Positions 4,702 through 54,092 of a DNA stretch of 64,000 nucleotides are shown here, one piece after another (the first letter of the stretch is position 1; every line of letters begins with the position of its first letter). The stretch covers positions 1,280,001 to 1,344,000 of the forward strand of contig CP000070.1 in NCBI GenBank assembly GCA_000002445.1, given 5' to 3'. A program made the position numbers and the translations under genes. Below the pieces are notes generated by a model. That model was not told the origin of the DNA. It saw only the letters and a list, made by a program, of their open reading frames with translations, and ran no database searches. The stretch is from Trypanosoma brucei. Taxonomy: Eukaryota.

Positions 4702-7147
4702 TTGAATAATTCCGCGTCACACTCACAACCTCCTACGAGTATCCGAATATTTTTTCTTTAAAAAAAAAACTCTAATCGAAAATGAATCCTTGCCTCTCCC
4801 TTTTCACAACTTTTGCTTGCTGGACTTCTATCTTCCCTTTTGATTCTTTTCTTGACTTCCTTTCTTTTTTTCCCCCCCCCCCTCACTTCCTCCTCTTCCT
4901 CCTCCTCCCTTTCGCCTCGATGTTTCCTTCACAAGTTTTGTTTGACTCACACCGATAACGTCACTCAACCCTGTCTTGTATATTTCTCCTTCCCCTTCAC
5001 AATCAATCAAACCGTATTTCCAATTTTCTTTCGTCCCGTTTCAGTATGGAGACGCCTTCCTTCTCCTCAGATTATTGATGATATTTATCGCTATGGGTTA
5101 TGTAAAGGAGTGAACGCATAAGTAATTATCTCTGCACCTACCTGTGAAAAGACGATCCCTTTCTTCACAATTTATTTTCTTTTTGCTTTCCTGTGCCTTT
5201 CCTCCCTAATTAACAGTGGTGGTCTCGCGAGAGACTTTAAAGAAAAGACCCCCCCCCAAAAAAAAAAAAAGAAGACAAGAGGAGAATCCACTTGGAACCA
5301 CCACTAACACCACACACACACACACACACCACACGTTGCTGCTGCGGCTAACTCGACCCCGAACACAACCAGCGCGCCCACGAAAACCTTCACTAACACG
5401 CGTTCCTCGTGTTTTCTTCTAATTAAGAAAAACAAAAAGAAAAAAAAGGACCAAAGGGGAAAGGCAAAAAAAATAAATAATAATAATAGATAGATAGATA
5501 TCATAGTCGCAACTGCTGAACACGCATGTGCACATTAAAATTATTTTCAAAAAAAAAACACTCATATGACAAGTAATGTAGGTAACTTACAAAATGGCAC
5601 CAGGAAAACAACTTTCTCTTTTTTTTCTTTCAGCATCATAAGCAAGTTTAACCACCGACATACATGAGGAACAAAACCCTTATTTACAGGCAGAAGTCGA
5701 AACTCATAACAAATCTGTTTATGAAGGTTAAAACTTTCGTTGCTATCGGGTCGCAAACTCCACATAAGAATTCATACATAACTTGAAAACGGTATTTTCA
5801 GACAGGCGTAATAATTCAATTAACCCTTCCATTCCATTTTATGCTTCACTGCGAGCCATGCTCTGACGGTTCGCAATAATAGTAATGATAGTAACATATA
5901 TAATTTCTCCTTTCCAAGGGTGAAAATAAAAATAAAATAAGAAGAATGATTTTAAAATGTAATGCACCTACTAAAATTCACGGCTGGCAACCCGAACCCT
6001 TCACTTTTCCTTTTTTTTAAAAAAAACCGCGCATATCGTGAGACGTAAGCACATATATTATTGTTGCACGGAAACAAATCTATGACCTTTGATGGGAGTA
6101 GGAACAATTAAAAAAAAAAAGAAAGAAAAAAAAAAAGAGAAAAACATGCCAATAATATAAGTTTCAAAAAAAAACAGAACCAGGCGGCGGAAGCAGCAGA
6201 AACGGTACATGGAAAGAACAGACATAAATACATAGTCATAACACAATAATTTGACACGAAAAGAAACAAAAAGAAAAAAAAGACGTTGGAACAATACTTG
6301 CGGCACGCCACAGAACACTGAAAACATACATCAATAGGCGACCAAAACTAAAGCCCAAAAGTCAACAACAAAAAAAAAGGAAAAGGAAAAGAAGTAACAA
6401 ACAAAAAAAAAAGAGACACCCAAAGACATTTAATATTTTTTAAACAAAAAAAAAGGGTGATGGGAACAGAAAACATAACAAAACAAAAAGATGCAAAAAT
6501 AAAGTGATGGAAACGACAATGTGCGCAGACAAAAAACAAAAAAACAGTACTCAAATGACATGCTCTCCATTTTTTTTTCATTTCTTTCCTTTCCTTTCCT
6601 TTCTATCTCCTTTTTCTTTCTTAAAAAAACAAAAATAAAAATAAATTGAAAAAAAAACAAACAAGTTATTTGGAAGGGATGGAACGCGGGAGGGACACGG
6701 GTTCACATGACGTACGTTCGTTTTACCTTTTTTCTTTATTTCTCTTTACTTTTATTTTTATTTTCCTTTCATCACATTTTATTTTATTTTTTTTTTCTTG
6801 CCTGAAAATGACCAGTGCTTTTTTTTCCCCCTTACCGCCTCCTCCGCCCCATTTTCCCCCCCCCCTCGCTTCTCCCTGCATGCCAGCTGCGGCAACATGA
6901 AGTACCGCATGGGAGAGAAATAAAATATTAAAAACAAAACAAAAAAGAAAGGGAATGGGGGTAAGAAAAAGTCGTTTTTCCTGTTCTCAATTGTCACATT
7001 CGTCTCTCCACTTCCGTCATTGGTTTCTTTCGTTTTGCTATCCCCTTCCTTTTTTTCTTTTCTTTATTCCCTCCTCCTTCTTTTTTTTTTTTTGAAACCC
7101 AAACCCATACGTTCATCCTCTTAATATTAAAATTTTTAAAAAAACAT

Positions 7148-26637: not shown

Positions 26638-28035
26638 TCACACCGGATGATGTGTAGCTGCTATGCGTTCTAATGTGCAATACATTTTATTTTCCTCGTC
26701 CTCGCCTAGTAGATCAGAGAGAGTAGAAGTTGAGGGCAAAAACATCGGGCCCTCGTAAACATCGTCCCGTCCCCTTTTGCGGTCAAAGAGCATGCGCCCC
26801 ACGACGGAAGCAGGAAGTCCCTTTATACTGGAGTTTTGTGTCACCGAAGTCAGCATTGCACTGCGGCACATCAGTGTCAACTTGTCACAATCACGGCACG
26901 AGCTGCTCGCGTTAAAAAATGAAAGCTCCATAGGGATGGATTCAGTTAATGCACTATGCAAACTCGCCGCGACATTCTGGTACACAGTTTCCCCTCGCCT
27001 CATAATTTTATTCGGCTTAAAGGGGGTTGTTAAGTTCCCATACCCGTCTACCAACCCGCCTTTTCGGCAGCCAGTCGGCAACAACGTTCCCAGCAACCGA
27101 GGGCAGAGGAATGGGGTATTGTCGGGTGCTGCATTGGCGTTAGACCCTATTAGGGAAGTGCACACAGCAGCTTCGTGTACAATTGGCCCAATAAGACTAG
27201 CATAGGTCGCCTCACATTGAGCCGACACACGTACAGTTCTCTGTGCCCACGAGGAGTTTGTTACGTAATTGCCCAACGACCTCGCATCTTCGGGTGAATA
27301 CACATGAAGGAGTACCAAATACTTCCATATGACTGGTTTTAGCACACATAAGGAACGCGAAGGGGACCTTTCGTTAGCACCTATAGTTATTATTATAGCG
27401 TTTTCGTATGATATCTCCTTGCAAGCCGTAGCAGACTCCTCCACAACGAGGTAGCATCGTGGAAGAACGTCTTCCAACAACATTCCCACCTTTTCATTGA
27501 GAACGCTGGAAGAGCTAGCACGGATAATGTTACCCTCAGCCGATACTGTGTTTCGCACATAGCCCACGACTGCTTCATAACTGTCCTCAGCGGAGCCATC
27601 GCCAGTAACATGCTCCACAACCTCAGTCGACATGGGTAAGCACCAGCTTAGTGGTACGGGCGGATGTCCTAAACTGCAAATACATCCCAATTGCTGGTAA
27701 AGACATCGGCGATCTCTTGTTTTGGGGTACAGTGACGTCAAAAGCGTAATAGCAAACGCCTTGGATGAGGCACGGAAAGGTCCTAGGGGACCGCTATAAA
27801 GGTGTAGCATTTCCCACAGGGGTATGCAGACTGCAGTAGCCAGTGCAGGGCCTTGGTCTCCACAGGACACTAAATCGCGGTGAACGGCGACCATAAAGCG
27901 GTTATAGAGGTCAAGGAGCCGGAAAATAAGCCTCTCTGAGTCGCCGCCAGTTGTCCATTCAATTAGGTTACCGTTTATCTCATCGACCAATTGCTGAGCG
28001 TTGTCATTTTCACCCATATCAAACCCGAGATACAA
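26638..28035 (-). CDS. Hypothetical protein, 465 aa (first gene of the minus-strand array)
   Basis: Long ORF with complex, non-repetitive composition in array orientation. No recognizable motif. Confidence 0.55.
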   Translation of the reverse strand: MYLGFDMGENDNAQQLVDEINGNLIEWTTGGDSERLIFRLLDLYNRFMVAVHRDLVSCGDQGPALATAVCIPLWEMLHLYSGPLGPFRASSKAFAITLLTSLYPKTRDRRCLYQQLGCICSLGHPPVPLSWCLPMSTEVVEHVTGDGSAEDSYEAVVGYVRNTVSAEGNIIRASSSSVLNEKVGMLLEDVLPRCYLVVEESATACKEISYENAIIITIGANERSPSRSLCVLKPVIWKYLVLLHVYSPEDARSLGNYVTNSSWAQRTVRVSAQCEATYASLIGPIVHEAAVCTSLIGSNANAAPDNTPFLCPRLLGTLLPTGCRKGGLVDGYGNLTTPFKPNKIMRRGETVYQNVAASLHSALTESIPMELSFFNASSSCRDCDKLTLMCRSAMLTSVTQNSSIKGLPASVVGRMLFDRKRGRDDVYEGPMFLPSTSTLSDLLGEDEENKMYCTLERIAATHHPV

Positions 28036-31000
28036 AAAGGAAAACGCCTTTTAATTCAGTACTCTTTCCTAAATCTGACACGTGCAAAAAATAAAACACC
28101 GGAAACCCCAGAGCGCATATACCCCCGAATTATCATTAGTCGTAGTTAGAGTTAACACTTTTTTTTAAAAAAAGGAATGGCTACAACACCACCAAACAGT
28201 AGGGAGCATCGGCACACAAATCCCGTAGTGTGAGAACAATCAACACCGCGGATGAACAACGTTGTCAATCTCTTCCCCCCATCACCTCCAAAAAAAAAAA
28301 AAAGCAAACAACACCTAAACAAAAAAAAGCGTGACTCTGTGTCCCCCAAACTATCTCAGTGGCACTTAAACAAATTTGAAAAGAAGACGATTGTACACTG
28401 AAAGGGAGCGACCGTCTTCACATTTCTGCTGTTACATATTGAAATAGAACTAACCATGATTATTTTTTAAAAAAATAATAACAAAAACAATATTAGCCTC
28501 GTATACACGCGGACGGTTGTAGGTAGAATCAAAAAACGCCATGACTGCACTAAATTGGGTAATACTACACGAATTCAGCGAAAGAAAATAGAAACAATAT
28601 TGTTAAGGTAATAACACTAACGGATTCCACCATCACCACCGAGTAGCAACAACAACGAAGCGCAAGGGACCACCTTCGAGCCAAATCATCTTAAAATTAA
28701 CAGACGAAAGGCTCTTCACAAAATCATTTGAATTGGTTCATCTAAAGCGAATTCAAAATTCAAACCATCTTTTTGGCCTTCTGACAATACTCCACAGCCT
28801 CACCTGCGTCCTGAGCGTCTCCGCTTGCACAATCCGGCTGGTATTTATTAAATTTCGCGCATGGAATAACGTTACCACACCAAAATTTATTTGTTCCATA
28901 GTTTATCCACGGTTTGTGAAGCACATCGTTATATATGCTCAACTTAAAGTCGCTGGCGGAGCAACAAACAAAAGAAAAAATAGTTGACTTAAAAAAGGGG
29001 GAACAGAATCTGACCTCCCCAGTGTCTCAGTCACATCGGAGTCAACCGCCTGGAAAATACACAGTTTTCTTTGAAATGTGTATAGCAAATTCGTGTGCTG
29101 CGTCAGCCCCCGCTGTAAGCTCTAAAAGAACGACAATGGCAACAAGCAATTTAGTTTGTAGCAAAATAAGTGGAAGATCGGCATGGACTCCACAACAGTT
29201 AGGCAATACTCTATACCAGACGCGAAGTAGCTACAATATAGCACCGAAGGCGGCAACTCCGTGCGCATTTATTTTTTTTTTAAGCAGCAAATACAATAAC
29301 GCATGTCACTTGTGATGTATGACTTTAAAAGAAGCTGAAATTCGGAGGAGGAACAATCAGTCCTCTAAAAATCGCAACAAATTTAATAGGGGTAGTTGTT
29401 GCATCAGCTTTTCCGCATCAGTTGTAACAAATGTATGTACGGAGAGTCCAATCAGTGCTTGAACAGCAACTCACCCCCATTCCATAGTGCTCGGAAAAGA
29501 CACTAAGGACGCAGCTTATCTAGCACAACCCCTTTTTTTAAAAAAAAAAAGAAACAAAAGAGGTTTTAAAGCCTAGGGTAGCAACAGCAGCCAAACTAAA
29601 CGCACGGATAGCCGATATGACGGCAAGCTACCCGAACAGAAGCAAAGAGACGGAAATTTTTACATATCGTCACAATACCCCCTTCCTCAGCAATGATTTG
29701 AATTTTAAATCAAAAAAAACGTCCGGTACAGCACAAAGTAAAAAATATGATAAAACTCCCCGCATGTGGCGGCAACGCAGTAACTACCTCGCCCACCGAA
29801 ATAATCAGCAAAGGCGTTCTATTTTTTTTTAATGTATACACAAGCACTTACACGAGGGAAGAGTACAATATTTAGCGAAAGACCGGCGGGATACTAACAG
29901 GTAGAAGTCACCTGCAGAGGGGACACTGTCACCACTTGCACCAACGTTTTTTTTTAAAGGTATAGAAGAAAAAAAAGGACATTTAATATTACAACAGTAT
30001 CTACTTATCACAACACCTTTGGGCACACCTTGGTATGGGACAAAAGGGGGGGGATCAAAAATGTACGAAAAGCTTGCAGTTGAACACATCACTAGCATCT
30101 ATCCGGACCCCATATAGATCACATTTCCGAGCTAATTACCGCGCTAGTAACTACACATGTCAGTTTAGCATCACATATTTGATAGTCACCAAGCACAAAC
30201 AGTTGAGGATAAATACTGTTGGATGGACCCCAATATACAGATATTTATTCACTAATGAATAATAAGTTACAAGCGAATAAAAAGCATGTGGAAAGCTCCA
30301 ACATGGCCTCATCCAACTTAATATGTCAGCTGAAGAGTAGTGGTAAACGAGGGTTTGCACCGCTAACATTAATAAGGAAACAACAACCATGTCCCACAGA
30401 AGACCGAGGCTTTGCCTCTGGGGAGAGAGCAAGAGGGTAACGCCCGCGTGACTGTTTACAACTATTACAGTCAAGAAACGCACGAGCAGCAAAACCATCT
30501 AAACGAAGATAGATCAGTGTTACGCTCCCGTGAGAAAAATAAACTGCTACGGCGACATTCTCCCATTTCAACCACCCAAAGAGCCCATTCGTCCATCATG
30601 TCACCTGGTTGTCCCAAATACACCTGGAAAGCGAAACTTACAGCTGGGCATCAGCGGGTCACAAAGAAGGGAAAATCCAACAGAAACTGAAGGCCTCAAC
30701 AGCACGTGGTTTACTCTAATGTCGTTCTGGCTACAATCAGACGATCAGTAATCAGCTATCAGATAGAAACGGAAGGAACAAATAGCGCTAAAAGCCCTAC
30801 AGTTCCCTGTTTTCTCCACGTCGCAGCGAGCTACCCACTCCTGCACAGCGCGGATATTACACGCAACTACAGTACGTCACGAATGTCCCCGCACAAAAGA
30901 AAAAGTAGTAAGGGCGGTGAAAACGTCAAAGTATTTCTAACCCCATAATACGAACGCACAATCACTTCAACGAAAAATTGTTGACAAACCCTCATTATAT

Positions 31001-32913
31001 CACGAAATGCGATTGTGCGATATAACACATTCCAAATATCGAATTAGTCTGCACAAAATTGCCCACCGTAAGTTGCATCAATTTTTTCCTCGCTGTTGCT
31101 ACAGCAGACCATCGATTCCAAGTACGTTAATATGCGCACGGATAGCTGTCCATGCGGGTTTCAGTGAGGTGTTGCACTTGAACAAGTTCACTTCCGGTCA
31201 TCTTTCGATGACACAGAGCGGAACATCTGCATATTTAAAAAAGCGTGAACAAGTAAGTAAAAAAGCCGAGCCGCCTCGGTGATGCGTGACAGTAGCGCGA
31301 ACGTTAGTGGTTCGTTTCTTCTTCCGGTGATATTGATATTAAAATCCCAGAAAGATAATTCACGCTACAGCCAATCTTCCCTTTGCGCGGACACCTTCAT
31401 TACCCCATCAAAAAGATATTACACCGGTTAAATCGAAAGGGTTTGTAAAATCAACAGAACTTTTGCGAAGGGCGATAGGAACGGGAAGCACATCGACGAA
31501 CATTCGCATAGAAGCAGTGATCAGACCCTTCGTAAGCTGCATAATCGTTAAGAAAGAGATGACACACCTCTCCCTCGTTGTGCACAACCGCACCTAGCAC
31601 CACGAGATGCACGTACAGTTGTGGAGCGTATCAGCAGGGAAAATGACAGGCAGGCCCGGCACATGTACATTATAGCGCAGAAGGGAGGGGTGAAGCGGCA
31701 CCCACCCAGCGCTCCACAGTTCCAGACCACGCAACGTTTGGACCCTTTCAAACAAAGGCCCCGTACCACGATAACGTCCCACCCATCGCACGCCGCATCG
31801 TGGTCGGCACCCACTGGCCCCAACTCATACAACCTAAAGGATACCAACGCGCAGTACCGGGCTAAGCGAGGGCAAATTCCCCATACGCGCCACATCTGCC
31901 GTTCTCGGTAAATACGGGCCGTACGTGCACAGGTTGTCAAGCACCCCTCCAGTCTTCAAGCGCAAAGAACAAAAACTTCGTTCCTCCTCCGCCGCAGCAT
32001 TCCTACTGCGACGCCAGCGGCCGGCGCAGGGCGAACCTGCGGCAGCTGACCATCCCCCACGCCCCACGACAAGCTCCCATTCCACCACCATGCGGCCATG
32101 CCCCAGTGGTACAACACCGACGGAACTGACGCACCCCCATTTTCACTGGCGAATTTCGAATGCACCAATGGCGCGCCACGCACGGTGGCCTTTACAGTGT
32201 GAATCCGCTCCATCCTCCGGGAGAGAAGGTGCACGGAGTGAGCAAACACCGTCGACCAAACTATCCGTCCCGAAACCTTCAGAGGCCTGAAGACAAGCAT
32301 TTCTTGTTTTTTCGTGGTACTCCCCGCCTTGCACTACCACACCGTCCCGACAGCGACCCTCTGCGCATCTTGGTTGCCACACCCACCCTATTGAATGGAG
32401 GAGTCCCTATTGCGAGCGGTGAGCCTAAACTAACCGCACAGGTGGCCCCAAATGGGCAAAGCACGTTGTCGTATTTCCCCCTTCTTCTTAATATGTGTGT
32501 CTTTCCCTCCTTATACATGGCATTTGCTTTTGCTCACCCTGAAGGAGGGGCCCTTTTTCTTGGTCTCGCTTCTTATTGTTGTGTTTTGGTCAAATAGTGT
32601 TTTCCCGTGAGCGTACCACGTTGTAACACCATCCCTTCAAATCATTTAATCACTCATGCGTGCGATGTCCCGGAGGGCTCGATTTCTCTTCCATCACGCG
32701 GGATGACCCTCCCCTGACCACAAGCTGAACAAAACATCCTATTGCTTGTTGCACCTCAAGAGGTGATGGGTCGGCCGCGCCTTCTTCAGGATGTCGCTAC
32801 CGGTCCTGTTGGACAGCCCTCCGTCTACAATGCTCCCCGTCGGACCATGTAACATTTCCATCGTGCTTTTATCATTTATGAATGTTGAGAATAACCACGG
32901 TCCGGCCTCGTAG

Positions 32914-32941
32914 CGCACACACACACACACACACACACACA
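32914..32941. repeat. (CA)13 microsatellite (reads TG on the minus/sense strand of the left array)
   Basis: Direct read: gcgcacacacacacacacacacacacac. Confidence 0.9.
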
Positions 32942-35199
32942 GCTGCACCAACCCCTGATGGAATCTCCAGAATACTCATGTGACCCAGTCCGGTGAAAAA
33001 ACCGCTCCTAACTTTACCAGCATGAGCCTGGTTATTATGGACACTTCTTGCGCACACAACTCCACGACTCATACAGGCTTCGTTGTGTGGCCCGGTTACT
33101 TTGGCGCCTTCCTCAACGCATACCTCTACGGGTCACCATAAGATTTAGTGAAGGGCGCGTTATCCCCCGAAACGGTATGCGCCCGCTTTGGTAGTTTAAA
33201 CTTCAATGAAGTCATCTTTTGATCACTAGGTATCGTGGACAGGTCCAGCCCGTGGGGTTACATTTCAGCTTCCGTCAACCCTCCTCTGTTTGCGTTAGCA
33301 TAAGGTTGCCGGCGGGGAAAAGGTTTAATATATTCTGTTTACATTGGTTAGTAACTCAGTGGATCTATCGTTCACGGCCATGAACAGAACAAAGTCGGAC
33401 ACCGTTCTTTTTGCCACACGGTACGGCTATATGGGGCCTTCCCAAAGTACTGTCGGTTTATAATGACTCTCGCCATCTTGTTGGGTGAAAGTTTCTTACC
33501 CACCACATAATTTGTAGATTAGAAAAAAACTTTCTCGGCCGCTCAGAAAATGGCAACATTTCCCATGGGTTCAAACTAACGAGTGTAGAGTATGAATTTC
33601 ACCGTGGCGAGCACCGTCGATTCGTACCAAGTTGCGTCTCCAATCAACTGAGTTATGGATCCTACTGCCAAATGTTGGCGCAGAAACCTTTCTCTTTTGT
33701 ATACGCAACTGACAGTCAACAGAGTCCACAAATCTCCTTTGAATCAACTACTGCATTGCTTTGTAATTGGCGCAGGTGGTCGCTGTTAGTTTTTGACGAT
33801 GCCATGACAGAAATCCCCTTGCTTTCCCCTAACGCCAGTTCAATAGCTTCACACTTCCACTTCCCGACACTCCTCAGCATTTTCGATTCCCGTTGAGTAG
33901 TTGTTTACCTGTAGTTTAGCCCGTTTACCTCCATGTGCTTTAGTTGGTACACCATACACGCCATTTTCTTCAGCAGAAGAAGGAAATTTCGATCTTCCTG
34001 TGGCAACAATCGGCTCAACCATGCGAAACAGTTTGTGTTTCGCGTCTTCTCAACCTCTGGCACGTTCTTTACCGGGGCATCCGAGAGTTTTGTCTGTCGT
34101 TGGTGGCACATTTTTGACCTTGGTTGCGGCTACCGCTCCTTCTATCAGCGTCTTGCCGTTTATCACTGGTGGAAGGGTTGGTCCCCATTCTGGGGCGTGC
34201 ACCGCGTTCGAAAACTTGCGGCCGCTTTTTTTCTGTTGCCGACGATTTGGGTACATGATCTTTCCATTTTTTAAAGGCTAGTACATGCATGACATGTATC
34301 CTAACTTCAAAGAGGTCGCCTTTCCCTTGCACCTGTGGGAGATTATCAGCTTCCTAGTTTAGTTCTGAAAAACTACTGTTCATAGTAAGAGAAATTACTG
34401 GTCTACAGCTATGGATATTCCTCACTAGAGAGTCGCACATTGCTACGTGCATCCTGTCCCCATTTCAGTTTATACACGCTTCCATCTTGCAGAGCACTTT
34501 CCTCTTCCCTGTTACCCACCGTTTCTTGGATTATATACAGGTTGCCTCTTTTGATGAGAAGTGGGAGCTTCGATGAGCGGTTGGCATTATTTTTTCAACT
34601 CCTGACCCGGCGATGGCATGGAAGACTCTCGAACTGCGGTTGTAGTTCAGCCTGAGCGCGGCGTTCTTCTGCGGCACATCACAATTCTATTGGGAACTAC
34701 TGTCCGGGGCGAATTTGGTTCTTCAATTTTTTCTCCTTGCAATTGTCCCTGTGTGGACGACTCCCATTTCGTCATCCACAAACCAATTTGAGGTTGTCTT
34801 GCCTCTGTGAGTTCGTGAGATATGTTTGTCTTATGTAGGATGGTGGAAAATAACGTTCACCCGGTTAATGATCTCAGCCTTTCCGTGCCCGTTGTGGCGT
34901 TCTCCAGAAAGCGGTTGGGCGCAACGGTGAGCTTTACATGGCGGTCAACCGCCACCATGGTGGTTGCGTCTCCCATCAATTTCGGAGTTGACGACCCCTT
35001 TAGTAACTTCCACTACGTCCAGGACGAGGCATAGGCTCTGGGGACTCCGTTTTCAGTGCGTGCGTGTCCGCAACGCTTATATCCCATCACATTAAAGCAA
35101 AGGCTTTCCCCTCGGCTGAACCGCGTTTCTCAGGGAACGCAGAAAGTCACTTCGCCCTTTCGCAACGTTTCCACCGGGACGACCTCCTTCGATTGGGGC

Positions 35200-36100
35200 C
35201 GGAACATTTTATATCTCACTGAGCCGCGCGGGTGCCGGAACCAGTGGATTGACTGGGACCTTCGGCAAGTAACAGAGTGAGGCCGCGGGGATCTTGCGTA
35301 TGGACTTGTTGGCATGTGCTTCGGTGCAACTCGAGCTGCGTTGGACCCCCGGTGGCCGGCAGTCCGCCGTGCGTCGGCGCGGCCGCGGGTAACCCGAGGC
35401 AATTGCCATTCCATTCTTTCTGGGAGGGCTTTGACACGTCGGGGTTTATGTGTACGGCCGGCGGCTAACCTAACTGCCACGAAAGAACAACTCCAATAAG
35501 TTGTTTCCGTCTTGATTCTCGAGGTTTCAGGGATCCCGTATTAAACCATCCGGCGTGGGGGCGCACGGTCAAAGTCTTCTTTCCACATGCGGTGTGATTG
35601 ACTGCGAGGTCGTGGGTACCCGGAGATAGTTTGAGGGTAGCTCCCCTTTGTAAGCTTTCCCCCCGCCCGCGCTACGGTTACTTCCGTCTTCTTTCCACAA
35701 TGGGATATTCCCAGTGGAATGGGTTCCGGGGCCTTATCACCTCTCGTGCGGGAAAATTCTGACTCTTTGTGCCCTGTGGGGTTGTCTTTGATGACGGGGT
35801 CGGAGTTATCTTGAGACAATTTCACATTTCCTTCCCCCAATACGTTCTGTCGGGCGATGTGTTCTCGTACGGTTGCCCCTGCGTTGCGTTCAACTGGTTG
35901 ATCCTCGCGCCCGTTGCGCCTTACACGGAGTTTTGAGCCCCCCTTCAGGGTTCTGGGCGTTACCGGCAGCTGGGTGGTGGTTGCGGCTCCTTGCCATGAG
36001 TTTCATGTCCAGTGGACGCTGGAAGACATCTGAGGCAGCGCTCATTTTGATAGTATTGGCTATGTTGCTGTTTCTGACGTGTGTGTGGGAGGCTTCGCTT
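35200..36100. other. GC-rich island inside the strand-switch region (short direct repeat GGCCGCGGG at about 35281 and 35381); function unknown
   Basis: Local GC is visibly above 60% against an A/T-rich surround. No ORF with coding character. No match to known snRNA, 7SL or rRNA that I can recognise. Confidence 0.3.
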
Positions 36101-36184
36101 AGGTCGCTGATGGTGTTGCCGCTTTTTAAAAGTTCGGTCGAAAGGCGCGATGGGGGTGAGGCGCCGTGTGTGCACATAAACTGT

Positions 36185-36208
36185 GTTTGTGTGTGTGTGT
36201 GTGTGTGA
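36185..36208. repeat. (GT)11 microsatellite on the plus (sense) strand of the right array
   Basis: Direct read: tgtttgtgtgtgtgtgtgtgtgtgtgatg. Confidence 0.9.
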
Positions 36209-37901
36209 TGGAGGAGCGACTTAGCTCCACCAACGCTGAGAGAAGTGGTTTTAATCTAGTGGTTACTGCCGCTTTGGATTTCCCCTACTGGCGCCAATTC
36301 TGTTATTTGTGCCAGGTAATGGATAATTTGGGATGAGGGTATTGTTTTAATGTTGATGAGAGGCCGCACATGTTTTTTCCCTCTCGCCAATAGCTTGCAT
36401 TTCCAAAAATTTATTATATACCCTGAAAAATTGGCGGCATTTACCTCAATACACTGCTGCGTTCTGTATCTGGACGGTTGGTGCGTACCCCAGAAAAATA
36501 CGTAGCTCCTTTGAGTTATGTGTGGATGTTGTCCATTTATGCCACTGTTTCCCCTACCTATGTGGGGGGACTTGGTATCTTTGTGTTTTTGCCCATTATG
36601 AGGTAAAGCTATTGACGTGGTTTGCTGCGCACTTTCTGTTAAGTATGTTCGAGCTATCGTGTTCATGCGATCAATTTACGATCCCTATAACGGGTTATAT
36701 ATTGGGTTTCTTAGTTGTTGTTGTTTTTGAAGAAAGCGTGTGTCGGGGACGAGCGGCTGTTACAAACTAGGAGTTAAGACCGTCAGTCGTGTATATTTTT
36801 TGCGGTGCTGAATTCATGTGCCATCACTTACATCTTTTTCGTATGATTAATTTTTTTTTTTTGCCGAATCAGATTATCTGTTTATTGGAGGGTATTGGAG
36901 TGCCTTCGCTTTTGTTTAGCATTTTCCCGATTTCTGTTACTGGTTGGTTGGTCTACCGTTTTCCTGCGTAAATGGCGTAGGCGACGTGCTAACATAATTT
37001 GTGTTTCACTTACTGCGGTGCTGTGGGCAAGAAAAAGACCTACTTATGGACGTGAGCCTTTCGAACTATTGGAAAACAGTGGTTTCACTCAGTAAGGCTG
37101 CATCAGTTTTGCTACTGTCGTACATTTGAGAGTGCTCTCGACGCTTTTCGACCGAATTTTTTTTTAAAAAACTTCGTTGAAGTGTTTTCACGGCCATGCG
37201 CGTATGAATAGTAGGAACATTCGTGTATATATGTGCGAAAGTTTCTGTTTTTTTTGTTGATGATTCAGTCTCTTGACTGACGCCTTACCCTTTTTGGTGT
37301 TGATGTATCATATTAGGCCAGGAAAAGAAGGGGGAGGGGTTCACCAATCTACATTCGTACCGACCATTGCCACTAGAATCCATATGGGTAAATATTTGTA
37401 ATCAACTTTTGAGGAACTAGTACTATATCTTATTTCTCTAGAAGGAGGCTAACTACTGAGTGGGGTGATCCACTTTATAGTTTATAACTCACGGACAAAC
37501 AAACCCGTTCCTATCCTTGATTGAGTTTGGCTTGTTCTACCGGCCCTTATAAACACAAAGCTACTGTTGTCGGAAATTCGTAAAGAAAGCCGACTGTCGT
37601 TTCTTTGCTTTTTCGTTATACGTGGTTGCACTCTTTGTTGATACTTTTGTCAATGTTATCTTATGCATAATGCTAAAGCACGAAATGTACCCTAATTCAA
37701 GTTGTTGTAATGTGTTGCTGGCTTCGACATATTACAGATGAATGCCCCCTTTCTACTATAAGACACCGTTTACCTCCCCCCTGACAACAGTGGAGAGAGT
37801 TTGCCAGATACGCCGCCAGCGGTTAAGTCCGTTGTGGAAATAGCATCAACAGGATGGATGTAGGCGATGATGAGTAAGCGTTAAATCTTCTCATAGACGT
37901 T

Positions 37902-39251
37902 GTGAGAAACAGTGTCTCACAGTTAAATAAATATTGGCTCGCTGGTGTGGGGACTTCTTGCCACCAGAGCCTGCGTGGGCTGACAATGTTGTCGGGCATT
38001 ACCTTTGAAATATTTCTGTTTAATTTTGAGATATATCATGATTTTTCTTCCCCCCTCCTTTTTTCTTTAGCCATTCGCATCGTGATTGCTTGTGGAATTC
38101 CGTCAATGACAAACTCTTCAGTGCAGCAGGTTGGTTGCCGGGTAACATACATATGGCTTTCTGGAAAGGATTCGCATCACGATATTCGCAGCAAGGACAG
38201 AACCATATATATTTCACCTGATGATTTGGAAAAGGACCCCAAAGAGCTTCTCCGTTTGGATATGTTCCCTGTATGGAATTTTGACGGTTCCTCAACAGGT
38301 CAAGCTGAAGGATTAATAACTGAAATTCACATCAAGCCTGTAAATGCGTACCACTGTTGCATTCCCCGTGCTTCCTCTTCAGTACCATGGATAGTTGTAC
38401 TCGCTGAATGCTTTTTACCGACCGGCGAACCCACACCCGATAACTCGCGGGCGGTAGCTCGTCGCATATTTGATAAAGGGCTCGGTACCCATCCATGGTT
38501 TGGGATGGAACAGGAATATTTCTTGGTAAAAGACGGACATCCCTATGGTTGGTGTCCCACTTGTCCCCCCGCGTCCCAGGGACCTTACTACTGCGCAACT
38601 GGCTCTGAATGTATCCGAGGTCGGAAACATGTTGATTTGCATTATGAGGTTTGCCTGCAAATGGGACTCAAGATATGTGGCACAAATGCTGAAGTTGCAT
38701 TTGGACAGTGGGAATTTCAAGTCGGGCCGTGCGAAGGGATCGAAATGGGTGATCAGCTTGTTGTGGCTAGGTGGGTGTTGCTACGAATTTTGGAGCTTGA
38801 AGGGTTGGATGCAGATTTTCGTGCAAAGCCTATTTTGGGCGACTGGAACGGTAGCGGACTTCACACCAACTTCTCAACAGAGGCCACTCGGGCACCGGGT
38901 GGTTTGGAAGTCATTTATCAATATATTGAAAGATTAAAGGAAACTTCGTCCAAGGATATAATTTTTTATGGAGTTGACAATAACGAGCGGTTAATAGGGA
39001 AGCACGAGACCTCAAAATTAAATGAAACAACGTTTGGAATAGGTACACGGGGGACCTCAATTCGAATTCCTACCGCTGTGGCTGCCGCACAAAGTGGTTA
39101 TATGGAGGATCGCCGGCCTGCGGCAGGGGCTGATCCATACTTGGTGTCATCAAGGCTCTTTGCATCATGCCTATCAGTGGACGCCGTTGAACTGGATTTT
39201 TCATCTCCTCGACACGAGCGGGAGTGGATGGCAAGTACTTCTAAGGTGTAG
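37902..39251 (+). CDS. GS: Glutamine synthetase type II; the homologous region starts at Met69 (nt 38106), and the preceding 68 codons are non-homologous
   Basis: GS-II signatures: YIWLSG...RSKDRT, FDGSSTGQAEG (matches the FDGSSTGQA signature), WFGMEQEY, NGSGLHTNFST, RGTSIRIP. The upstream 68 aa are hydrophobic, low-complexity, and unrelated to GS. Confidence 0.85.
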   Translation: MRNSVSQLNKYWLAGVGTSCHQSLRGLTMLSGITFEIFLFNFEIYHDFSSPLLFSLAIRIVIACGIPSMTNSSVQQVGCRVTYIWLSGKDSHHDIRSKDRTIYISPDDLEKDPKELLRLDMFPVWNFDGSSTGQAEGLITEIHIKPVNAYHCCIPRASSSVPWIVVLAECFLPTGEPTPDNSRAVARRIFDKGLGTHPWFGMEQEYFLVKDGHPYGWCPTCPPASQGPYYCATGSECIRGRKHVDLHYEVCLQMGLKICGTNAEVAFGQWEFQVGPCEGIEMGDQLVVARWVLLRILELEGLDADFRAKPILGDWNGSGLHTNFSTEATRAPGGLEVIYQYIERLKETSSKDIIFYGVDNNERLIGKHETSKLNETTFGIGTRGTSIRIPTAVAAAQSGYMEDRRPAAGADPYLVSSRLFASCLSVDAVELDFSSPRHEREWMASTSKV

Positions 39252-39804
39252 CGTCTAATAGGAAAATGTTCTTGAATGAGTTTGTGCAAAGAATGTGTCC
39301 GCGAAGCTCGGGCGTATCGTTTTTTCTGTCAGCGGAGCGTCAACTTATTTAACTTAACTCAACCGATGTTGAGAAATCCCTCTGTCGTTTAGGAACTTTG
39401 TTGTGCATTCATTTTTTTATTGTTACGTTATTCTTTGACCTTTTTTTTTTTAACTGTCAGTTTGTTCGTATATATTTTTTCTATGTGATAACACTAATAT
39501 CTGGTAGAGTGTCCTGGAGAGGGAGAGGGAGAGAAAGAGAAGATTAATCTAATCCGTTATAAATGAACGCAATGGTTGTCGGTTGAGTTTTCGTAACCAA
39601 AAAGAAATCGAACGCCTTTGCTCTACCCGTTGCTGCTGTTCTTGGGGGGGGGGGGGAGGGGAGCCTGTCATAGGCTATATGACCACTGTCCCCATTGTGG
39701 TGTTGGAGATCTCTTTCCTCCTTAACTCTGAGCTGTTATGATCCCTCTTTATTCATTTTATTGGTTTCCATGACGCGGGTAGGTGCCAGACAAAGGTAAC
39801 ATTC

Positions 39805-43905: not shown

Positions 43906-44688
43906 ATGGTGTCACTGAAGCTCCAAGCTCGCCTGGCAGCGGACATCCTGCGCTGCGGCCGCGGCCGCGTGTGGTTGGACCCTAACGAAGCAGTAGAGAT
44001 TCGCAATGCCAATTCACGCAAGAGTGTACGCAAGTTGATCAAAGACGGTTTGGTAATGCGAAAGCCTGTTAAGGTGCATTCGCGCTCCCGCTGGCGCCAG
44101 ATGAAGTTGGCGAAGAGCATGGGACGCCACGAGGGTACCGGCCGCCGCGAGGGTACTCGCGAAGCACGCATGCCCAGCAAGGACCTTTGGATGCGCCGAC
44201 TTCGCATTCTTCGCCGTTTGCTTCGCAAGTACCGCGAAGAAAAGAAGATTGATCGGCACATCTACCGCGAGCTGTACATGAAGGCAAAGGGCAACGTGTT
44301 CCGCAACAAGCGCAACCTTATGGAGCACATCCACAAGGTGAAGAACGAGAAGAAGAAGGCTCGTCAGCTTGCTGAGCAACTCGCGGCGAAACGCCTAAAG
44401 GACGAGCAGAACCGCCGCAAGGCACGAAAGCAGGAGCTGAAGAAGCGTGAGAAGGAACGTGAGCGTGCACGCCGTGACGATGCCGCTGCTGCTGCCGCTG
44501 CCAAACAACGAGCTGCCGCGAAGAAGGCTGCCGCTCCCGCTGCCAAGAAGGGTGGCAAGGCTGTTGCCCCCGCCACTCCTGCGAAGGCCGCCCCTGCAAA
44601 GGCCGCCGCTGCGAAGGTTGCCCCAGCGAAGGCGGCTCCCGCAAAGGCCGCCAGCCCTGCCGGGAAGAAGGCAGCGGGTAAGAAGTGA
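43906..44688 (+). CDS. RPL19: 60S ribosomal protein L19e, copy 1, with C-terminal KAAPAKAA repeat tail
   Basis: [28 protein letters not shown]...[29 protein letters not shown]...[28 protein letters not shown] is canonical L19e. The Ala/Lys/Pro repeat tail is typical of trypanosomatid ribosomal proteins. Confidence 0.95.
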
Positions 44689-45589: not shown

Positions 45590-46372
45590 ATGGTGTCACT
45601 GAAGCTCCAAGCTCGCCTGGCAGCGGACATCCTGCGCTGCGGCCGCGGCCGCGTGTGGTTGGACCCTAACGAAGCAGTAGAGATTCGCAATGCCAATTCA
45701 CGCAAGAGTGTACGCAAGTTGATCAAAGACGGTTTGGTAATGCGAAAGCCTGTTAAGGTGCATTCGCGCTCCCGCTGGCGCCAGATGAAGTTGGCGAAGA
45801 GCATGGGACGCCACGAGGGTACCGGCCGCCGCGAGGGTACTCGCGAAGCACGCATGCCCAGCAAGGACCTTTGGATGCGCCGACTTCGCATTCTTCGCCG
45901 TTTGCTTCGCAAGTACCGCGAAGAAAAGAAGATTGATCGGCACATCTACCGCGAGCTGTACATGAAGGCAAAGGGCAACGTGTTCCGCAACAAGCGCAAC
46001 CTTATGGAGCACATCCACAAGGTGAAGAACGAGAAGAAGAAGGCTCGTCAGCTTGCTGAGCAACTCGCGGCGAAACGCCTAAAGGACGAGCAGAACCGCC
46101 GCAAGGCACGAAAGCAGGAGCTGAAGAAGCGTGAGAAGGAACGTGAGCGTGCACGCCGTGACGATGCCGCTGCTGCTGCCGCTGCCAAACAACGAGCTGC
46201 CGCGAAGAAGGCTGCCGCTCCCGCTGCCAAGAAGGGTGGCAAGGCTGTTGCCCCCGCCACTCCTGCGAAGGCCGCCCCTGCAAAGGCCGCCGCTGCGAAG
46301 GTTGCCCCAGCGAAGGCGGCTCCCGCAAAGGCCGCCAGCCCTGCCGGGAAGAAGGCAGCGGGTAAGAAGTGA
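45590..46372 (+). CDS. RPL19: 60S ribosomal protein L19e, copy 2 (identical to copy 1)
   Basis: Identical 260-aa translation to 43906-44688. Confidence 0.95.
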
Positions 46373-51152: not shown

Positions 51153-54092
51153 GTGCGTTGGAGAGGGGTAATGCACGACGGGTCGCAGCAAGATGCGTCC
51201 CACGGAGCGACTGCAATGAACAGTGGTGTGGTTCCGGATGGCCAGTGGAGGGTGGATGAAAATATCATTATCCGAGAGATACTTGCAATGAATACACTTG
51301 CCATGCAGAGGTGCGATACGGGGGCACTCGATGAATCAAGTAGTATTCTTACTGATGCCTACATGAAACTGCACAACGATACATCAACCGGTGAATCCCA
51401 GGGGTTAGACGCGGTACGTGCAACGACACTCAACAACCTTGGTGTTGTTGAATGCCACCGCGGGCAGCATCGACAGGCGCTAAGTCATTTCGAAGCCGCA
51501 CGGCAGTTGGAGGAGGCGTGGAGTGCCGCCTCCCCTTCCGTGGCTTTGAACAGCTGTGCTGCATATAATGCACTTGGAATGTATGACAAAGCCACGGCTG
51601 CTGCAATGGAAACTATCAATATGTTGCGCAGGTTGTTTGCCCAACAAGAGTTTCAGGGATCGCCTACCGGTGAAGTTGCTTCTACCCCCGGTGGAAGCTG
51701 TGGCGCACAACCTCAGAGCGATGGGATGAATGTTGCCAGTTCCGACAACGCAGCACTGTGGGGTGCCGCCTGGCACAATTTGGCGGTTGCGCAAATCAAC
51801 ACGGCAAAGAGCAGCACTGATCTGAGTGAGTACACCAATGCTGCGGCTCTGTTCCAGAATGCTATGCGTGCGACGCAAGAGTTGTTAGGGTATGACCATC
51901 CGATGACAAAGAGTGTGACGGAGACATACCGTGCGGTACGCAACGCGCTACGGACGCACGGCGTTTATAAACAACACCACACTCTCTTTACGGCACCTTT
52001 GAGGCCTGCGGACCCGCGTGATGAGGCGGATGATATGGAGCAGTATTTCAAGCAATGTGGCATCAAGTCGAGGAGACGGGCTTTGGAAAAGTATTACCGC
52101 GATTTGACCATCACGTTCTGTGGTGCTGTGACGAATGGAGTGAAACTGACTGAGCGGCTCGATCCCACTCCGTACCCCCTGGCAAAAGATGTGTCATTTC
52201 GCAGGAGTGGTCAAAAGGATTCACTGCGAATGTTGCGAGCAATACCGACGGGGAGCACTATTGAGAAAGCATGTCACCTGTACGGTAATCCACATCCTTT
52301 GCTATTTTCGTTACCGCCTGAGTACCGTGCAAGTGAGGTGGGGACTGCAAAGAGTATCCCAAAAGCTGCATCAGCTAATTCTTTTGCAAAAGTGCCTATG
52401 AAACCCAATGCTCTCGCAAGCTCCAGAAGACCACAACCGAAGCGTGAGCAGATATTTAACGAGGGGCAAAGGAGAATGCAAATTCAGTCGAATATGCCAA
52501 AGCAGCAGCAGCGCCAAATCGGTCCGCCATCGACTGTGGTGAACTATTCACGCGCACTACAGGAAACCCCGGGAGCTGCGCCAACTATTCCTCAGATTAC
52601 CCCTCTGAGTTACAAAGCGAGCATCGATGAGCACTGGCAACCACCAGTTAATCAAACTCCGGCACCTGTGAATTACAACTGGTCCGTTCAACAGCAGGCA
52701 CCAAATACTGTCCCAACGGCTCCGCTTGTTTACCAGCAGGCATCAGTTAATCAAACTCCGGCACCTGTGAATCACAACTGGTCCGTTCAACAGCAGGCAC
52801 CAAATACTGTCCCAACTGCTCCGCTTGTTTACCAACAGACGCCAGTTAATCAGGGTCAAGCACCTTTGAATCACAACTGGTCCGCTCAACAGCAGGCACC
52901 AAACGTTGTTCCAACGGCTCCGCTTGTTTACCAGCAGGCATCAGTTAATCAAACTCCGGCGCCTGTGAATCACAACTGGTCCGTTCAACAGCAGGCACCA
53001 AACACTGTTCCAACTGCTCCGCTTGTTTACCAGCAGGCACCAGTTGATCAAACTCCGGCGCCTGTGAATTACAACTGGTCCGCTCAACAGCAGGCACCAA
53101 ATACTGTTCCAACTGCTCCACTTGTTTACCAACAGGCACCAGTTAGTCAGGGTCAAGCGCCTGCCGTGGCCAGTCAACCCCCCCTGAACCAGATGCCGAA
53201 CGTTTCTCAAGGAGAATCATTTGATCACCAGCAAGGGATGAGTGGACGACAGGAACCTTTGCGCCAGCAAGAACAGCAGATGCTGGCCTCATGCCGCCGG
53301 CAAGCTCCCGCTGACCTTGGCCAGGGAGCTGCAGCCGACCACCGTTCGCATCAGGAGTCGGTCTCTAATAATACCCTGGTAGTTGGTGGACAGGAAGAAA
53401 AAAAGAAGAAGGACCATGTGCAACCTGTTCCCGCTGCACCCGCGGCTGTTCCTGCTGGGCCCGCGGTCGGTGAGGCTTCGAAGCCTGCAGCGGCGGTTCG
53501 AGGGCCCCTTCCACCCCTGAAATCACCACCAGGTGGTCGTGTGATAGCAAAGGCTGAGACATCCGATGGAGTTGAGGGAATCGTTAGTGCGCCACGCAAA
53601 GCTTCGTCCGGAGGGCAAACAGCGACATATGATGCACGGAGAGCCTACGAGCAAATAAAGTACATTCTACTGGCCGACCCACCGGCCGAGGCTTCCCGGA
53701 GAAAATCTAAGCAAGACCGTAGCAAAAAGGATTCTGTGCCTGCAAATGTGCCCCAACAGGAATGTGGCCCCTGGACCGATAACGCAGCACCCGCAGCCGG
53801 GGAGTCACCAACGGAGCATAAGCCTCACCGTCTATTTGATGCTTTATGGGTTTCGGGCGGGGGCCCAGCTGACCAGGCCCCGCTGCGCGTAGTTGGGAAG
53901 CCCAGCTACTTTGTGTCATCCGTCCTTGACATGCGCCAGGGTCAGGCGGAATTCCCTGAGGAGGTGATGCAGATGGTGGCGGAAAATAGTCGTTCCTCTT
54001 GTTCCGATGTGGAGGAAAGACATTCTCAGACGATGGGGCCCGCGCAACACTCATGCACTGAGGCTGGAATACCCACACATGATCAGTCATGA
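51153..54092 (+). CDS. TPR-like repeat protein (N-terminus) with an internal array of six 33-aa Q/P-rich repeats and a Pro/Ala-rich C-terminal region
   Basis: N-terminal helical repeats (LNNLGVVECHRGQHRQALSHFEAARQLEE; AYNALGMYDKATAAAMETI; WHNLAVAQI) are TPR-like. The central repeat block has the shape VNQTPAPVN[HY]NWS[VA]QQQAPNTVPTAPLVYQQ[AT][SP] x6. Confidence 0.75.
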   Translation: MRWRGVMHDGSQQDASHGATAMNSGVVPDGQWRVDENIIIREILAMNTLAMQRCDTGALDESSSILTDAYMKLHNDTSTGESQGLDAVRATTLNNLGVVECHRGQHRQALSHFEAARQLEEAWSAASPSVALNSCAAYNALGMYDKATAAAMETINMLRRLFAQQEFQGSPTGEVASTPGGSCGAQPQSDGMNVASSDNAALWGAAWHNLAVAQINTAKSSTDLSEYTNAAALFQNAMRATQELLGYDHPMTKSVTETYRAVRNALRTHGVYKQHHTLFTAPLRPADPRDEADDMEQYFKQCGIKSRRRALEKYYRDLTITFCGAVTNGVKLTERLDPTPYPLAKDVSFRRSGQKDSLRMLRAIPTGSTIEKACHLYGNPHPLLFSLPPEYRASEVGTAKSIPKAASANSFAKVPMKPNALASSRRPQPKREQIFNEGQRRMQIQSNMPKQQQRQIGPPSTVVNYSRALQETPGAAPTIPQITPLSYKASIDEHWQPPVNQTPAPVNYNWSVQQQAPNTVPTAPLVYQQASVNQTPAPVNHNWSVQQQAPNTVPTAPLVYQQTPVNQGQAPLNHNWSAQQQAPNVVPTAPLVYQQASVNQTPAPVNHNWSVQQQAPNTVPTAPLVYQQAPVDQTPAPVNYNWSAQQQAPNTVPTAPLVYQQAPVSQGQAPAVASQPPLNQMPNVSQGESFDHQQGMSGRQEPLRQQEQQMLASCRRQAPADLGQGAAADHRSHQESVSNNTLVVGGQEEKKKKDHVQPVPAAPAAVPAGPAVGEASKPAAAVRGPLPPLKSPPGGRVIAKAETSDGVEGIVSAPRKASSGGQTATYDARRAYEQIKYILLADPPAEASRRKSKQDRSKKDSVPANVPQQECGPWTDNAAPAAGESPTEHKPHRLFDALWVSGGGPADQAPLRVVGKPSYFVSSVLDMRQGQAEFPEEVMQMVAENSRSSCSDVEERHSQTMGPAQHSCTEAGIPTHDQS
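52647..53165 (+). repeat. In-frame 99-bp tandem repeat array (about 5.2 copies, slightly degenerate) inside the 51153-54092 CDS
   Basis: The 'gttaatca' motif recurs at 52647, 52746, 52845 and 52944, giving a 99-nt period. Further copies follow, with third-position and a few replacement differences. Confidence 0.85.

Follow-up and report, generated by a model that had tools for sequence, protein, structure and literature searches.

A GC-Rich Non-Coding Block in a Divergent Strand-Switch Region of Trypanosoma brucei Chromosome 7, a Candidate Part of an RNA Polymerase II Start Region

The 64-kb stretch of DNA analyzed here (the window) corresponds to positions 1,280,001–1,344,000 of chromosome 7 of Trypanosoma brucei (Tb927_07_v4). 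It harbors a GC-rich non-coding block, termed block B, that sits in the gene-free divergent strand-switch region between Tb927.7.4960 (minus strand) and Tb927.7.4970 (plus strand). Block B most probably consists of ordinary non-coding DNA and lies at the upstream edge of a transcription start region (TSR) that had been mapped before. On balance, the evidence tips toward the more specific reading that the plus-strand unit extending from Tb927.7.4970 to Tb927.7.6000 is served by a dispersed, GT-rich RNA polymerase II (Pol II) start region, of which block B constitutes the upstream (5′) part. This reading is favored by the position of the block, its strand asymmetry, its content of TSR-associated 10-mers, and the conservation of its position, all of which are circumstantial. 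Transcription would then initiate within or right beside block B, and the GC richness itself may matter. An earlier examination of the letters alone (the sequence-only reading) had offered a promoter or chromatin element as one of several explanations. It is the sole one favored here, on circumstantial grounds and for a zone of initiation that was already known.

Position in the Strand-Switch Region

Window coordinates equal those of Tb927_07_v4 minus 1,280,000, because Table S1 of Kolev et al. 2010 places Tb927.7.4970 at Tb927_07_v4 1317986–1319251. Genes occupy the minus strand up to 28035 and the plus strand from 38106, and the base skew reverses at 33–35 kb. The cumulative GC-skew minimum, at 34–35 kb, marks the left edge of block B. 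In Table S14 of Kolev et al. 2010, the units Tb927.7.4960→4690 (minus) and Tb927.7.4970→6000 (plus) are classified as “Divergent” Pol II units on the basis of 5′-triphosphate RNA-seq; thus, the switch region is already experimentally known as a divergent initiation region. None of the novel transcripts of the same study is listed for 29.5–38.07 kb. Since the nearest processed transcript on the minus side is Tb7.NT.56, about 8.5 kb (29.5–38.07 kb) is devoid of a known processed transcript.

Extent and Composition of Block B

The sequence-only reading had described a strongly GC-rich island of about 900 bp at 35.2–36.1 kb. The interval 35200–36100 has a GC content of 56.2%, whereas 900-bp windows average 44.0% (standard deviation (sd) 6.3) in non-coding and 51.9% (sd 2.4) in coding sequence, with the highest coding window at 58%. 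Four-fold degenerate sites, a rough neutral proxy, have a GC content of 49%. The 15 GC-richest non-coding 900-bp windows (15/15) all fall in block B or in a second block at 31.4–32.4 kb. Judged against the non-coding averages and the four-fold sites, block B is therefore a true outlier among non-coding sequence, which is also the outcome of the windowed-GC check that had been proposed. The word “strongly” was an overstatement, as the block lies barely above the coding level, and its extent is wider than assumed, approximately 34.8–36.3 kb. The block is likewise not unique in the switch region, given that a stronger one is present at 31.45–32.4 kb.

Over 34800–36150, block B has a GC content of 55%, a GC skew of +0.05, a G+T fraction of 0.57, and a CpG observed/expected ratio of 1.03. 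The intergenic tracts of the window are polypyrimidine- and purine-rich, a trait that, with the layout of the open reading frames and the reversal of skew, points to a kinetoplastid. The motifs singled out previously are correctly placed: ggccgcgggg lies at 35281–35290, ggccgcgggt at 35381–35390, and the quoted stretch ccggcgtgggggcgcacgg at approximately 35550, and the (GT)n tract closing the island is a (TG)13 microsatellite at 36182–36207. A NotI site, GCGGCCGC, can be read at 35378–35385 inside the GC peak. The two copies of GGCCGCGGG in that peak are at chance level for a 9-mer, as an estimated 1–2 such pairs are expected in 900 GC-rich bases. CG dinucleotides are indeed many, but their number is explained by composition. 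The observed/expected ratio of 0.98 in 35200–36100 compares with 0.95 both for the window as a whole and for its non-coding windows, and with 0.94 for its coding windows, so that CG dinucleotides follow base composition and block B is not a CpG island. No second copy of block B was found within the 64-kb window.

Strand Bias and Start-Region Words

On the plus strand, the G+T fraction rises from approximately 0.5 at 34.9 kb to 0.59–0.66 at 35.5–36.9 kb, with dips to 0.57–0.58 at three points, and reaches the maximum of the window (approximately 0.66) at 35.95–36.85 kb. This bias can be set beside the findings of Wedel et al. 2017 (PMC5579346) at other T. brucei loci, where initiation clusters at the 5′ end of H2A.Z domains and the 5′ ends of TSRs are richest in coding-strand-biased 10-mers, most of which are G- and T-rich. 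In that study, synthetic GT-rich elements led to directional transcription and to H2A.Z deposition; the tested regions, regA and regB, belong to another locus, on chromosome 10. In its Dataset EV1, GGGGGGGGGG ranks first among the 10-mers with strand bias at T. brucei start regions.

The 157 published 10-mers of Wedel et al. 2017 were mapped onto the window. Between 34.96 and 36.31 kb, where approximately 0.2 matches per strand are expected at random, 16 are found on the plus strand and 0 on the minus strand. The plus-strand matches in block B include the rare words TGGTGGTTGC (twice), GTGCGTGCGT, TTCGCCCTTT, and TGGGTGGTGG, as well as CGTGTGTGTGGG. The strongest G4-type (G-quadruplex) motif of the window lies elsewhere, a G13AG4 run on the plus strand at 39644–39661, between the glutamine synthetase gene and the CCCH zinc-finger gene.

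Partner Block and Core

The second block (block A), which is stronger in GC content than block B, has a GC skew of −0.18 on the plus strand and is hence G-rich on the sense strand of the minus unit. TSR 10-mers on the minus strand of block A are GGGCGTGGGG and TGGGGCGTGG. Blocks A and B are not inverted copies of one another, the (GT)n tracts apart. T. b. gambiense annotates two 115-amino-acid “hypothetical” open reading frames (ORFs) in block A. The two ORFs of the window in this block have no Pfam match and, by tblastx, no homologue in the related loci.

The (CA)13 and (TG)13 tracts flank the switch core, and in each case the (TG)n repeat lies on the sense strand of the facing unit. Both blocks carry the 9-mer GGCGTGGGG on their sense strand, at 32055–32063 (minus) and 35552–35560 (plus). 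It has three copies in the window as compared with 0.47 expected, a count reached in 1 of 100 shuffles. This shared word is a post-hoc lead only and could be due to chance.

The Same Locus in Other Kinetoplastids

Blocks of similar composition recur at the syntenic position in other species. In T. theileri, a block at 8.0–8.95 kb of locus L006 has a GC content of 59% (as compared with 31% for intergenic and 47.5% for coding sequence) and a skew of +0.16, and ends 1.05 kb upstream of the glutamine synthetase ATG. The T. melophagium block, at 7.9–8.72 kb of locus L007, has a GC content of 58.5% and a skew of +0.11, and ends 1.28 kb upstream. In Leishmania sp. Namibia, the plus-side block at 8.2–9.35 kb of locus L011 has a GC content of 60%, a skew of +0.37, and a G+T fraction of 0.68, and ends 0.65 kb upstream. 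All three blocks are non-coding, have an excess of G on the sense strand, and closely precede the AT-rich leader of glutamine synthetase. Each carries one or two G4 motifs and many G-runs. In the Leishmania plus-side block, the GC skew reaches +0.48, and there are 16 G-runs of at least five bases and two G4 motifs.

Synteny is complete at the Leishmania locus, where the minus strand carries peptidase S9, 3-beta-HSD, and a hypothetical gene, and the plus strand carries glutamine synthetase followed by a CCCH protein. Its switch region (L011 5079–10001) also contains a minus-side block at 5.4–6.95 kb with a skew of −0.14, and an AT-richer center at 7.0–7.8 kb where the skew flips. Among the compared blocks, T. 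brucei block B has the weakest skew and is without the G-runs and G4 motifs of the others. No two of these blocks could be aligned, including those of T. theileri and T. melophagium.

The controls from T. cruzi and T. conorhini were uninformative, the T. conorhini contig having an assembly gap and lacking the switch region. In T. cruzi, the approximately 5 kb upstream of glutamine synthetase (L004 1–5300) have long ORFs open in all three plus-strand frames and a flat GC content of 40–44%. This stretch is presumably a long tandem repeat, and a switch region of the T. brucei type is absent from the contig.

Divergence between T. b. brucei and T. b. gambiense

Positions 27991–49242 of the window align to chromosome 7 of T. 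b. gambiense with 98.7% identity. From 38 kb on, where the sequence is mostly coding, there are 0–5 substitutions per 500 bp, and comparable values are found at 36–38 kb (3–5) and at 35.5–36.0 kb (5). Of the five bins that make up 33.0–35.5 kb, one (34.0–34.5 kb) has 3 substitutions per 500 bp and the rest have 14–22, with 12 substitutions clustered within 52 bp at 35052–35103. The region between the blocks and the left half of block B thus evolve fastest, and the right half is calmer. Possible reasons for the divergence peak at the switch core are a lack of constraint, an absence of transcription-coupled repair, or a conversion tract. Differences between A/T (weak) and G/C (strong) bases in block B are balanced (13 vs 12) and therefore give no sign of a lineage-specific gain of GC, although with no alignable outgroup they do not reveal the direction of substitution.

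Proposed Role of Block B and Points against It

The switch region thus contains two GC-rich non-coding blocks of approximately 1–1.5 kb, each with a G(+T) bias on the sense strand of the unit it faces. The core between them, about 2.4 kb long, is AT-richer and skew-neutral and evolves rapidly between the subspecies. In the proposed role, block B would act at the level of DNA and chromatin, with no stable RNA or protein product. By analogy with other T. brucei start regions, the G/T-rich strand-biased words and the (TG)n tract may recruit Pol II directionally and favor H2A.Z/H2B.V nucleosomes. The higher GC content could provide nucleosome-favoring DNA between AT-rich flanks.

Several observations weigh against assigning block B to the start region in this manner. 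The classification by Kolev et al. 2010 applies to the whole switch region and not to the level of the block. The 10-mers were drawn from 199 regions, presumably including this locus, so that the word test is supportive but not fully independent, and several of the matches are overlapping words within two GT tracts. The skew of block B is weak (+0.05), and the block is without the G-runs seen in the other species. The two sides of the switch region are not mirror images, the (TG)n tract being downstream of block B and upstream of block A. With 19 substitutions per 500 bp at 35.0–35.5 kb as compared with 0–5 in coding sequence, tight sequence constraint is argued against. The cross-species sample consists of one locus in four lineages, two of which are sister species. 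Published accounts of T. brucei describe GT-rich tracts, not GC-rich blocks, and no CpG islands are detailed for this organism by Briggs et al. 2018. In Leishmania, H3K4me3 peaks and start regions are reported to be GC-poorer than the genome, which has a GC content of 60%. Given GT-rich tracts, no CpG islands, and Leishmania TSR marks at lower GC in the literature, the GC aspect is at most a small addition to a known element.

Possible Decayed Insertion or Mutational By-Product

Block B may instead be a functionless by-product, either of an old insertion (a retroelement or a dead gene) that has decayed or of a mutational or repair bias (e.g., GC-biased gene conversion), an explanation that deserves weight but is on the unlikely side. 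In the second version, repair at open chromatin or at an origin would act on DNA that is free of the untranslated-region and polypyrimidine constraints that keep intergenic DNA AT-rich.

The insertion version draws on the history of the locus. A reverse transcriptase (RT)-RNaseH sequence interrupted by frameshifts and stops is common to the syntenic switch regions of T. vivax and T. theileri (tblastx E 2e-55), and motifs of the FDLKASFFQ- and TDASM.G.GA-type are visible in it. It belongs to a DIRS/VIPER-like family that is multi-copy in T. vivax and T. theileri, with one T. theileri member carrying RVT_1. The T. melophagium switch region contains an RT relic of the same family as well as an ingi-like element (RVT_1, Exo_endo_phos). 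The syntenic switch region thus collects retroelements in these three species, as the by-product explanation would have it, and the T. vivax RT relic itself has a GC content of approximately 60%. Both T. brucei blocks together span approximately 4.7 kb, and a VIPER element is about 4.5 kb long. The core and the left half of block B diverge fastest, as unconstrained or hypermutable DNA would, and the blocks are unalignable between species.

However, searches for such a relic in T. brucei were negative. The period-3 signal in block B is 1.4–2.1, like that of non-coding sequence. Ten ORFs and the six-frame translations of 30.3–33.3 and 33.3–36.3 kb gave no Pfam match. Stop-free segments of at least 45 amino acids from 34.8–36.2 kb, with their (GT)n-encoded ends trimmed, had no match at E≤1 among 5.8 billion proteins. 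The statement of the sequence-only reading that no ORF in the island is protein-like is therefore borne out by Pfam, periodicity, and protein search. A tblastx comparison with seven related loci (L002–L007 and L010, two of which have intact-looking RT ORFs) returned nothing at E 0.01 or 1, and that with the Leishmania locus a single 11-residue match (E 0.007) to an unrelated part of the locus. No similarity in the switch region was detected by tblastx, blastn, or nhmmer against T. vivax, T. cruzi, T. theileri, and T. melophagium, or by tblastx, the only method used in this case, against T. conorhini. The relic of a degenerate gene, named in advance as an outcome that would undo the island claim, was consequently not detected by any search.

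A hidden Markov model (HMM) of the RT family scored 1e-50 to 1e-102 in T. vivax, T. theileri, and T. melophagium but E above 3 on the T. brucei window and T. b. gambiense. No retroelement was detected in the switch region of T. brucei or Leishmania sp. An origin of block B from an RT-RNaseH/VIPER-like relic is not supported, given these E values and the lack of protein similarity. In T. theileri, the GC block starts where similarity to a second copy of the RT element ends, and that second copy is not followed by a GC-rich block.

A relic may have decayed beyond detection. Nevertheless, a random relic leaves unexplained the two-sided bias for G/T on the sense strands and the two-block layout in Leishmania, and the balanced weak/strong differences show no lineage-specific gain of GC.

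Non-Coding RNA as an Alternative

That block B encodes a non-coding RNA, whether structured or an unstable promoter-associated or long non-coding transcript, is quite improbable. Heterogeneous, poorly spliced polyadenylated transcripts occur near divergent switch regions (Kolev et al. 2010), and transcripts from such regions are enriched among the RNAs stabilized upon RBP33 depletion. In addition, block B lies upstream of the first splice-acceptor site, and a primary transcript that starts there would cross part of the block.

The structured RNA suggested by the sequence-only reading found no backing in any of the searches. Rfam gave zero matches at gathering thresholds in the 64-kb window; at E≤10, the only matches within 32–38 kb were two chance-level C/D snoRNA matches (E 1.5 and 6.3) at 34.70–34.79 kb, outside the island. 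A tRNA/tmRNA scan found none. Twenty overlapping 150-nt windows folded on both strands had z-scores of −0.68 to +2.56 relative to dinucleotide shuffles, and none was more stable than the shuffles. No homologue outside T. brucei can be aligned, and the T. b. gambiense sequence holds too few differences, so that covariation lends no support. No novel transcript of Kolev et al. 2010 is listed here, and long non-coding RNAs of T. brucei are reported to be less GC-rich than mRNAs.

G-Quadruplex, R-Loop, or Origin Site as an Alternative

The least probable explanation is that block B acts through an unusual DNA structure, as a G4 or R-loop zone or as a binding site of the origin recognition complex. 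ORC1/CDC6 sites are reportedly located at transcription-unit boundaries. Replication initiation and transcription interact functionally in the T. brucei genome, according to the title of Tiengwe et al. 2012, and R-loops have been mapped in T. brucei switch regions near initiation sites (Briggs et al. 2018). The G4 motifs and many G-runs of the T. theileri, T. melophagium, and Leishmania blocks would fit such a role. In T. brucei, no canonical G4 motif, with loops of up to 7 or 12 nt, is present at 34.8–36.2 kb, and a G4Hunter-like score of at least 1.5 is reached by one weak cluster on the C-rich strand (approximately 0.3 expected). Block B has a single run of at least five G and four runs of at least five C. 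Its G content peaks at 39% per 100 bp, as compared with the 40% G used as the criterion for R-loop elongation zones in T. brucei by Briggs et al. 2018, who also found that the R-loop signal does not track positive GC skew in this organism. With a skew of only about +0.05 in addition, the suggestion that the island is G4-forming or R-loop-prone is not upheld by the sequence.

Implications

How Pol II locates its start regions in trypanosomes is only partly understood; the literature knows GT tracts and a few short promoters there, but not a compositional “island”. For this single locus, the result is mainly a clarification, in that block B is assigned to a mapped initiation region and is not a new gene or RNA. 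A wider claim, namely that paired, kilobase-scale, sense-G-biased GC blocks, conserved in position and not in sequence, are an ancient feature by which Pol II TSRs of kinetoplastids are generally marked, appears improbable at present. If it were true, there would be one block per direction around a fast-evolving, AT-richer core, and these promoters would form a class defined by composition, analogous to CpG-island promoters. Composition rather than sequence would be maintained, either by selection or by a conserved mutational process linked to initiation, and organisms usually said to lack promoter-like sequence features would have compositional promoters. Generality of the paired blocks would also offer a simple sequence-based predictor of TSR edges and a handle on the placement of H2A.Z nucleosomes.

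Neighboring Genes and Other Features of the Window

The first gene of the plus unit encodes a glutamine synthetase (Pfam), the protein being 100% identical in T. b. gambiense DAL972, and the identity of Tb927.7.4970 as the glutamine synthetase gene was confirmed in a 2025 preprint. Annotation puts the start of a 421-amino-acid protein at 37986, upstream of the spliced-leader acceptor site mapped to 38071. Translation in fact begins at 38106, giving 381 amino acids, as was flagged earlier in Table S1 of Kolev et al. 2010.

Further along the window, ribosomal protein L19 genes are tandemly duplicated (43906–44688 and 45590–46372) and do not differ over at least the first 300 nt. A run of 15-nt repeats encoding Ala/Lys/Pro-rich pentapeptides closes each gene. 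An ORF of 979 amino acids (51153–54092) contains six tandem 99-bp units (33 codons) at 52538–53261. The coordinates of the features discussed are collected in Table 1.

Table 1. Coordinates of features in and around the strand-switch region (window positions, unless a related locus is named).
Feature	Coordinates	Strand	Remarks
Tb927.7.4960, first annotated protein-coding gene of the minus unit	26638–28035	−	465-amino-acid ORF; 459 amino acids in T. b. gambiense
Tb7.NT.56, processed minus-unit transcript closest to the switch (Kolev et al. 2010)	28165–29531	−	
Partner GC-rich non-coding block A	31450–32400	−	GC 57–58.5%; GC skew −0.18 on the plus strand
Switch-region core between the blocks	32400–34800		GC 43–50%; AT skew already plus-like, GC skew still minus-like; includes most of 33.0–35.5 kb, where the subspecies diverge fastest
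(CA)13 on the plus strand, i.e., (TG)13 on the sense strand of the minus unit	32916–32941	−	
GC-rich non-coding block B	34800–36300	+	GC at least 0.51; dip at 35.4–35.6 kb
Cluster of TSR strand-biased 10-mers	34958–36310	+	16 on the plus strand, 0 on the minus strand
GC peak of block B	35200–35400		64% GC in 200 bp; two GGCCGCGGG copies and one NotI site
Most GT-rich plus-strand stretch of the window	35500–37000	+	G+T 0.57–0.66 (0.57 at one point)
(TG)13 microsatellite, downstream edge of block B	36182–36207	+	two units shorter in T. b. gambiense
First plus-unit gene, Tb927.7.4970 (glutamine synthetase)	38071–39251	+	spliced-leader acceptor 38071; true ATG 38106; stop 39251
Degenerate retroelements in the syntenic switch region	L002 (T. 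vivax) 5361–6964; L006 6721–8184; L007 ~30–1450 (−), 4188–6259 (−)		

Comparison with Known Systems

The closest known relatives of block B are the dispersed GT-rich promoters of T. brucei (Siegel 2009; Kolev 2010; Wedel et al. 2017). Both occur in the same divergent Pol II setting with an excess of G+T on the sense strand, and both share sense-only TSR 10-mers, a (TG)n tract, and the absence of a discrete conserved motif and of a product. The published TSRs are characterized by G-runs, T-runs, and GT tracts, whereas block B is a stretch of approximately 1.4 kb with a GC content above the coding level. It has a weak GC skew and no long G-runs, the nearest being the G13 at 39644, downstream of glutamine synthetase.

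As described in papers citing Cordon-Obras et al. 2022 (Cell Rep 38:110221), each divergent switch region contains two opposed, orientation-dependent promoters. As far as that description goes, the two-promoter layout matches the two-block layout observed here. The core elements of those promoters are reportedly short, on the order of tens of base pairs. Block B, by contrast, is a compositional feature at the kilobase scale.

Vertebrate CpG-island promoters resemble block B in being kilobase-scale with a GC content above 55% and a CpG observed/expected ratio of approximately 1, as well as broad, unregulated, and weakly directional. However, T. brucei is not CpG-depleted (0.95 in the window), and there is thus no CpG contrast of the kind that sets vertebrate CpG islands apart. 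We know of no cytosine-methylation logic in T. brucei that would apply here.

The strand-switch region of Leishmania major chromosome 1 is reportedly rich in G/C tracts. At the locus orthologous to the one studied here, the Leishmania block is strongly G-skewed (+0.37) with many G-runs, whereas that of T. brucei is nearly unskewed. Nonetheless, the orthologous Leishmania switch region is organized like that of T. brucei, with two sense-G-rich blocks around an AT-richer center.

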